Sequence record: OL964735.1
Length of the DNA stretch: 64,000 bases
Reading direction: 5' to 3' (one strand)
DNA from: Escherichia phage T4
Shown here: in pieces, positions 32,327-32,924 of the stretch
Layout: each line of letters starts with the position of its first letter
How positions within the stretch are numbered: position 1 is the first letter of the stretch
The notes under the pieces: model-generated
What the model saw: the letters and a program-made list of their open reading frames with translations, nothing else
What the model was told of the DNA's origin: nothing
Databases searched by the model: none
Position numbers and translations under genes: made by a program

Positions 32327-32924
32327 CGTATGTTCGATTGAGCTCGCTAATTCTCAACCCGTTCTCTTATGAACTGCTGCATGTTACCATGCAGTCCAGA
32401 CTATATCACAATCCCGGAGGGATTCTCCCCATTTCGAGTCGCTTGACCCTACGTCCGAAGACTAGTCGTTGAACCTTGTTTTGCAATTGTCGCCGTGCCA
32501 TCGTTTATATGTTGATGGTGATAAATCTTTCTTATCACAATATGGACAATTCAATTGAATTCTATTTGGATTTAATTTACATCTGTCATTATGTTTTAGA
32601 TAAAATCCAGGACCTTTACCAATGTGACCACAGAAATCACATGTGATTTCTTTTTGTGCAGGATGGGTCCCGTTCTTAACCATTTCTAATGTTTTTGCTG
32701 ATGTTCTTTTCTTATGTTCTTCCATCAGAATCTTTAGGTATAGGTCCGTTAGCATCTATCCAAATTTTTCTATAGTTCAATTGTGCATCCTCTTAAAAGT
32801 ATAATCATATTTATATTATACTAATTAAAGGTGCAAGCAAAACCTTGGCTGCTAGTTTTCCATAAAGGACTTTCCAGCAATTAAAGGAGTTTTCGATAAA
32901 CGTTACCGTTTAAAGGCGCATTTT
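32327..32924 (-). mobile_element. Group I self-splicing intron in nrdB (598 nt)
   Basis: Interrupts a conserved R2 motif (exon 1 ends ...YVSFA, exon 2 resumes ...[16 protein letters not shown]); 5' exon ends in U and intron ends in G; length equals the T4 nrdB intron. Confidence 0.8.
32462..32755 (-). pseudogene. I-TevIII: Truncated intron-encoded homing endonuclease (I-TevIII remnant)
   Basis: 97-aa ORF inside the nrdB intron with Cys/His zinc-finger-like motifs; far shorter than an intact endonuclease (about 270 aa). Confidence 0.65.

Follow-up and report, generated by a model that had tools for sequence, protein, structure and literature searches.

The introns within td, nrdB, and nrdD in phage T4 all belong to subgroup IA2, and the original self-splicing papers are those of Sjoberg (1986) and Gott (1986). 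The nrdB intron, the subject of Eddy and Gold (1991; cited by both PMC2988022 and PMC1865063), has been described as self-splicing (PMC2988022). The td intron (I-TevI) and the nrdD intron (I-TevII) of the same phage share its architecture of a ribozyme with a looped-out open reading frame (ORF), a late promoter, and a sequestered ribosome binding site; for the intron ORFs of T4, sequestration of the binding site is in a hairpin and the late promoters have been mapped experimentally (PMC2988022). Unlike the nrdB intron, those of td and nrdD encode intact GIY-YIG enzymes and are mobile.

The nrdB introns of phages RB3 and SHFML-26 have their insertion site, their ribozyme, and the C-terminal 86 codons of their ORF in common with T4. 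In the ribozyme core and the short stretches of exon beside it, the identity of T4 is 98% to RB3 and, bar one missing base, 100% to SHFML-26. At 1090 to 1091 nt, however, these introns contain 491 bp that are absent from T4, encode an active dimeric endonuclease of 269 amino acids (aa) with an HNH domain and two zinc fingers, and are self-mobile (PMC1865063). The RB3 enzyme, I-TevIII, is an HNH endonuclease whose catalytic motif lies in the first 50 residues. Catalytic-domain residues that are conserved (H26, H27, N39, and H48) have been mutated, and the H-N-H alanine substitutions abolished cleavage but not DNA binding (PMC1865063). Each of the two fingers (C211/C214 and C242/C245) binds zinc, and when either is disrupted the homing site is bound and cleaved less well. 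The smallest fragment that still binds DNA is 166C, while 194C does not bind, and the dimer interface falls within residues 194 to 241 (PMC1865063). The part retained in T4 is this zinc-finger and dimerization region (PMC1865063).

Wilson and Edgell (2009) established that MobE, a free-standing endonuclease of T4, nicks phage T2's nrdB, that the T4 nrdB intron is inherited at high frequency in phage crosses because it is mobilized in trans by the adjacent MobE, and that inheritance of I-TevIII depends on mobE (PMC2790892). The enzyme acts close to the 5′ end of nrdB and not at the intron insertion site, and the intron is co-converted as flanking DNA.

We analyzed a window of 64,000 nucleotides from Escherichia phage T4 (sequence record OL964735.1), in which nrdB is interrupted by 598 nt. 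That this insertion is the self-splicing group I intron of phage T4 nrdB with a deletion-crippled I-TevIII is close to certain. It has the same sequence, coordinates, length (598 nt), 388-aa product, and 97-aa ORF as the T4 nrdB intron on record (X04140; NC_000866, T4p230/T4p231), and over a dozen phage T4 records (NC_000866, AF158101, X04140, HM137666, and others) match the region from 31800 to 33600 at 100% identity. These records annotate nrdB as a coding sequence (CDS) joined from two pieces, label the ORF inside it as "I-TevIII, defective" (a group IA intron with a proximal-half deletion, H-N-H family), and place denA downstream and mobE upstream, all on the minus strand of the window. 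The nrdB intron and its defective I-TevIII are long known, and there is nothing new in their identity; intron, defective enzyme, and mobility were published between 1986 and 2009 (X04140; Robbins 2007; Wilson and Edgell 2009). What we add to the original prediction, which had been made from the letters of the window alone, are refinements: the out-of-frame deletion, the 11 foreign and 86 native codons of the remnant ORF, and the role of MobE. The analysis presented here supplies the anatomy, the deletion, the domain loss, and the RNA structure, and for self-splicing, failure to home, and the role of MobE we rely on the published experiments. The locus is the classic case of a homing endonuclease gene in mid-decay, kept circulating by a neighboring free-standing endonuclease.

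The interrupted gene comprises the following parts:

32925 to 33588, minus strand: nrdB exon 1, 221 codons and the first base of the Cys222 codon
32327 to 32924, minus strand: group I (IA2) intron of nrdB, 598 nt, with its 3′ terminal G at 32327
31824 to 32326, minus strand: nrdB exon 2, starting GU ACC UUU AAC, 166 full codons and the stop

On the minus strand, exon 1 ends in UAU GUA UCU UUU GCG U, its final base at 32925. The intron begins with AAAAUGCGCC and finishes with CGAACAUACG, the last letters being CAUACG, and exon 2 opens with GUACCUUU from 32326. Left unspliced, the nrdB frame runs into UAA directly after GCG (YVSFA, then stop). Joining the two exons yields a 388-aa NrdB that aligns without gaps to the 388-aa NrdB of phage T6 at 96% identity; the T6 gene is intronless, and the same two 40-nt flanks adjoin there with 0 nt in between. 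The spliced product also matches Escherichia coli R2 (PDB 1PIY and others) over residues 3 to 384 (E=1.5e-127). The split cysteine codon corresponds to E. coli C214, between the iron ligands E204 and E238/H241 (E. coli numbering), and exact removal of the intron restores the conserved helix between these ligands. The original prediction had posited a 598-nt insertion splitting a conserved R2 motif, and its borders proved exact (32924 to 32327, minus strand). The predicted 388-aa product is collinear with both T6 NrdB and E. coli R2, and the E. coli segment that had been given for comparison reads the same in the R2 structures.

The RNA features of the intron are as follows:

32785 to 32928, minus strand: 5′ half of the ribozyme, with P1, P2, the P3 5′ strand, P4, P5, the 5′ strands of P6 and P6a, and the P6b/c hairpin
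32928 to 32925 paired with 32919 to 32916, minus strand: P1, GCGU with GCGC across AAAAU, with a U.G pair at the splice site
32336 to 32484, minus strand: 3′ half of the ribozyme, its first part holding the 3′ strands of P6a and P6, the P7 5′ strand, P7.1, and P7.2
32336 to 32484, minus strand: the second part of the same 3′ half, holding the P3 3′ strand, P8, the P7 3′ strand, P9, P9.1, and P9.2

The structure was drawn manually on eight aligned alleles, after the ORF segment had been taken out of them. It spans P1 to P9.2, including the P3/P7 pseudoknot, P7.1 (GUC-UUCG-GAC), and P7.2 (GGGUC-AAGC-GACUC, with one compensatory change from U-A to C-G); the loops of P2 and P9 are GUAA, that of P7.1 is UUCG, and P6b/c forms a long hairpin. 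Its 89 pairs give 712 cells in the eight-allele alignment, and 99.7% of these hold a standard pairing. Compensatory changes occur in six pairs (in P2, P7.2, P9, and P9.2), a count that none of 500 shuffles reached and that was 0 in slid controls. P3, P6, P7, and P7.1 never vary among these eight closely related alleles, and for them the support is fit and covariance model only. Just before the 5′ splice site stands a U that pairs with a G in P1, and the intron's last base is a G (32327). P1 is invariant in 8 of 8 alleles, though as drawn it has only 4 bp, and P10 has at best 2 bp. An unconstrained minimum free energy fold of the full 598 nt recovers P2, P4, P5, P6, P6a to P6c, P7.1, P7.2, P9, P9.1, and P9.2 (z=-4.4). 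Because the stretch from the P7 5′ strand to the P3 3′ strand contains P7.1 and P7.2, we assign the intron to subgroup IA2.

An Rfam scan of the whole window returned nothing at the gathering threshold. In E-value mode, the covariance-model search that had been proposed as a check placed RF00028 on the intron at 32617 to 32377 (minus strand) with 35.7 bits (E=2.7e-7), against a gathering score of 50. The T4 copy falls below this score because the model cannot bridge the ORF insert of ~300 nt in the P6 loop. Since such inserts defeat RF00028, the empty gathering scan was not taken to count against the intron. Two alleles that lack the ORF pass the gathering score, PD112 with 68.6 bits and DCP80 with 74.1 bits; over the ribozyme core and short exon flanks, they are 98% and 92% identical to T4, respectively. 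The conserved core with its covariation and the scores of the ORF-less alleles uphold the prediction of a group I intron in nrdB. In the splicing scheme that this anatomy suggests, the pre-mRNA would fold into the P1 to P9.2 ribozyme, guanosine-initiated transesterification would cut after the U of GCG-U, and exon joining after the terminal G would restore the Cys222 codon (U from exon 1, GU from exon 2), giving the 388-aa β subunit of a class Ia ribonucleotide reductase (RNR).

Looped out of this ribozyme are the remains of the endonuclease gene and its control elements:

32808 to 32815, minus strand: late promoter consensus TATAAATA, in the P6b/c hairpin loop upstream of the endonuclease ORF
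32788 to 32794, minus strand: Shine-Dalgarno sequence AAGAGGA of the native I-TevIII start, paired inside hairpin P6b
32712 to 32780, minus strand: native I-TevIII start and first 21 to 22 codons, LNYRKIWIDANGPIPKDSDGRT, with TTG at 32780 to 32778 and a UAA just past the deletion junction
32713 to 32722, minus strand: deletion junction GAAGAACATA, the single copy left of the flanking near-repeats
32462 to 32755, minus strand: 97-codon ORF annotated as defective I-TevIII, with its UAG stop in the P7 5′ strand
32579 to 32641, minus strand: zinc finger 1, CDFCGHIGKGPGFYLKHNDRC, corresponding to RB3 C211/C214
32483 to 32548, minus strand: zinc finger 2, CPYCDKKDLSPSTYKRWHGDNC, corresponding to RB3 C242/C245

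The ATG of the 97-codon ORF, at 32755, lies in another frame and joins the native frame at the deletion junction, such that 11 out-of-frame codons (MLTDLYLKILM) precede 86 native C-terminal codons (RB3 residues 184 to 269). Aligned to full-length I-TevIII, aa 9 to 97 of the T4 ORF are identical to RB3 residues 181 to 269 at 85 of 89 positions. The native part differs from RB3 at two positions, D185E, inside the junction repeat, and A265T. Both CX2CX12-13HX3C motifs are intact (aa 39 to 59 and 70 to 91), and the last ~9 codons share their sequence with J6/7, the P7 5′ strand, and the 3′ strands of P6a and P6. Pfam places HNH_3 at residues 4 to 48 of RB3 I-TevIII (E=1.9e-11) and finds no HNH domain in the T4 97-aa ORF. 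We regard the T4 ORF as a remnant and not as a member enzyme because the 491-bp deletion removes this domain. T4 still has the native start, its Shine-Dalgarno sequence, and the late promoter, but the native TTG (32780) now yields only the 22-aa peptide LNYRKIWIDANGPIPKDSDGRT. Two weak Pfam matches were set aside: a subthreshold PyrI_C metal-binding match on the 97-aa ORF (E=0.046) was taken as noise from the CxxC pattern, and a FlgM match at residues 74 to 114 of the RB3 protein (26.2 bits, barely over the cutoff of 25) is probably compositional.

The deletion was mapped from an alignment of nine alleles and from exact pairwise comparisons. The T4 intron equals the 1090-nt SHFML-26 intron minus nucleotides 210 to 700 (491 bp) and minus A64, which lies in the P5 loop, with 0 substitutions. 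A 491-bp deletion and one base are thus all that separates the T4 allele from a wild full-length allele, which is a descriptive addition to the record. The missing block is flanked by 10-nt near-repeats, GAAGAACATA on the left and GAAGACCATA on the right, and a single copy remains in T4. In the full-length alleles listed, a 111-nt probe that bridges the T4 junction matches as two pieces spanning 602 nt (111 plus 491), and the long alleles encode the 269-aa I-TevIII from a TTG seven bases past AAGAGGA. As 491 is not a multiple of three, the deletion breaks the frame. The P6 loop formerly contained a full HNH gene of 269 codons for I-TevIII, as it does in RB3 and SHFML-26, and in T4 a deletion between the near-repeats both removed the HNH domain and shifted the frame. 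No active endonuclease would then be made, and the T4 intron would be incapable of homing by itself.

Published homing assays point the same way, with <0.1% homing for a T4 intron donor versus 4.3% for RB3 (Robbins et al. 2007; PMC1865063), and they sustain the prediction that the intron is immobile on its own, with the addition that MobE helps it in trans (PMC2790892). The internal ORF was also rightly recognized as an I-TevIII-type remnant with zinc-finger-like features, given its two fingers, its orthology to RB3 I-TevIII, and the lack of an HNH match. The description as a 97-codon remnant is refined in one respect: just 86 of its 97 codons are native.

The arrangement described for collaborative, or trans, homing (PMC2790892) is present in the window, where an intact mobE ORF abuts nrdB:

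33585 to 34283, minus strand: mobE, free-standing HNH endonuclease, a 232-aa ORF with HNH, NUMOD3, and one C-terminal CX2C...HX3C finger

This gene lies immediately upstream of nrdB, and its stop overlaps the nrdB start. In a cross, MobE would nick an intronless nrdB and repair would co-convert the intron, allowing it to spread. The reference record NC_000866 splits the mobE stretch into mobE (141 aa) and nrdB.1, whereas the window has one uninterrupted ORF; the two differ by 2 indels and 4 mismatches, from near 33848. By this difference, the window matches later resequenced T4 records and not the reference.

A further descriptive addition is that wild isolates now show HNH-domain deletions as well as alleles with no ORF at all. 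Where T4 has its deletion, 491 bp are likewise missing from the wastewater phage Manna and from the isolates 215Ecol030PP and F26, and 488 bp from Lv5cm. The deletion therefore circulates in nature, and a laboratory artifact was rejected as its origin in T4. These four deletions lie on two different 3′ intron haplotypes, and their junction base is C, while that of T4 is A; either a single old event that recombination has spread or recurrent slippage could account for them. The late promoter TATAAATA has been lost in F26, Lv5cm, and 215Ecol030PP, and the remnant in 215Ecol030PP has an additional 1-nt frameshift. In AV109 (Escherichia phage, Mosigvirus; intron at 1201 to 1792), an independent deletion of 504 bp took out the HNH region in frame. 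Its left microhomology is that of T4 (AAGAACA), its right copy is a different one, and the resulting 101-aa protein joins the native start with the first 22 codons to the zinc-finger region. In PD112 (304 nt, 1201 to 1504) and DCP80 (Gaprivervirus; 309 nt, 1201 to 1509), the whole endonuclease gene is gone between two ACAATTG repeats. Because both keep the promoter and the Shine-Dalgarno hairpin, we consider them secondary deletions and not introns that predate invasion by the endonuclease gene. Taken together, the alleles display the stages through which the endonuclease gene decays. DCP80 has no annotated nrdB exon 1 CDS and has a primase gene upstream.

Two readings at odds with a decayed intron can be weighed against these data, and we give each of them next to no credence. 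The 598 nt might not be an intron at all, with nrdB split or pseudogenized by some other insertion and NrdB made as two polypeptides or not made; many automated annotations of related phages do give two separate "ribonucleotide reductase" CDSs. That reading would leave unexplained a complete group I core with covariation, ORF-less alleles that exceed the gathering score, a U.G pair at the 5′ splice site together with a terminal G, and a precise excision that rebuilds the helix between E204 and E238/H241, and the curated T4 records join the exons. No better placed is the proposal that the short T4 form is ancestral and that RB3-type introns gained the HNH domain by insertion, for which the general precedent is the known shuffling of endonuclease domains (PMC1865063). 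T4, however, keeps the native TTG, the Shine-Dalgarno sequence, the late promoter, and the first 21 to 22 HNH-domain codons, which no longer share a frame with what follows, and its breakpoint falls in one copy of a near-repeat that the long form has twice. The long form also outnumbers the short one among the matches listed in the junction-probe search, and AV109 has an independent, differently placed deletion. The out-of-frame native N terminus, the doubled repeat, and the commoner long alleles among the matches listed lead us to favor deletion over insertion of the HNH domain.

A third reading accepts the intron and the deletion and concerns what the deletion left behind. The 97-aa ORF might be a functional small zinc-finger protein, composed of the dimerization and finger region, with loss of the HNH domain itself under selection, a prospect that we consider very unlikely but not as far-fetched as the preceding two. 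Its roles, equally doubtful, might be those of a repressor at the putative operator over the late promoter, in keeping with the I-TevIII autorepression at an operator proposed in review (PMC2988022), or of a dominant-negative partner or site blocker against a coinfecting I-TevIII. The fingers and the mapped dimerization region (residues 194 to 241; PMC1865063) are intact, several wild isolates have HNH-less alleles with an open C-terminal frame, and the AV109 deletion fuses the native start in frame to the finger region. Loss of the HNH region alone is recurrent, given the 491-bp deletion on two haplotypes and the 504-bp deletion of AV109 with the same left microhomology, and there is a slim chance that the fragment is a selected, expressed protein, for example one that acts against homing. 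In T4, however, translation from the native start is out of frame, and no convincing Shine-Dalgarno sequence precedes the ATG of the 97-aa ORF; with 166C as the minimal DNA binder and 194C nonbinding, the T4 remnant begins at residue 184. With 0 substitutions between T4 and SHFML-26, selection has had no time to become visible. Sister alleles continue to decay, through loss of TATAAATA, the 1-nt frameshift of 215Ecol030PP, and the loss of the ORF in PD112 and DCP80, which argues against a selected function of the fragment and leaves a decaying endonuclease gene as the preferred reading.

Several further observations concern the wider history of these introns. Over the nrdB region including the intron, T4 and SHFML-26 are only ~94.6% identical, while the intron itself is identical bar the deletion and one base. 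Exons more diverged than the intron fit an intron that moved laterally, and recently, between diverged copies of nrdB. A second RF00028 match in the window, at 37462 to 37692 on the minus strand (40.3 bits, E=7e-8; below the gathering score), is presumably the td intron with I-TevI. Beyond T4, intron nucleotides 518 to 596 (32329 to 32407, covering P9 to P9.2) find stretches of 50 to 80 nt at 84 to 96% identity in unannotated DNA of unrelated phages that infect Pectobacterium, Klebsiella, Vibrio, Aeromonas, and Pseudomonas, and these stretches probably belong to related group I introns in other genes.
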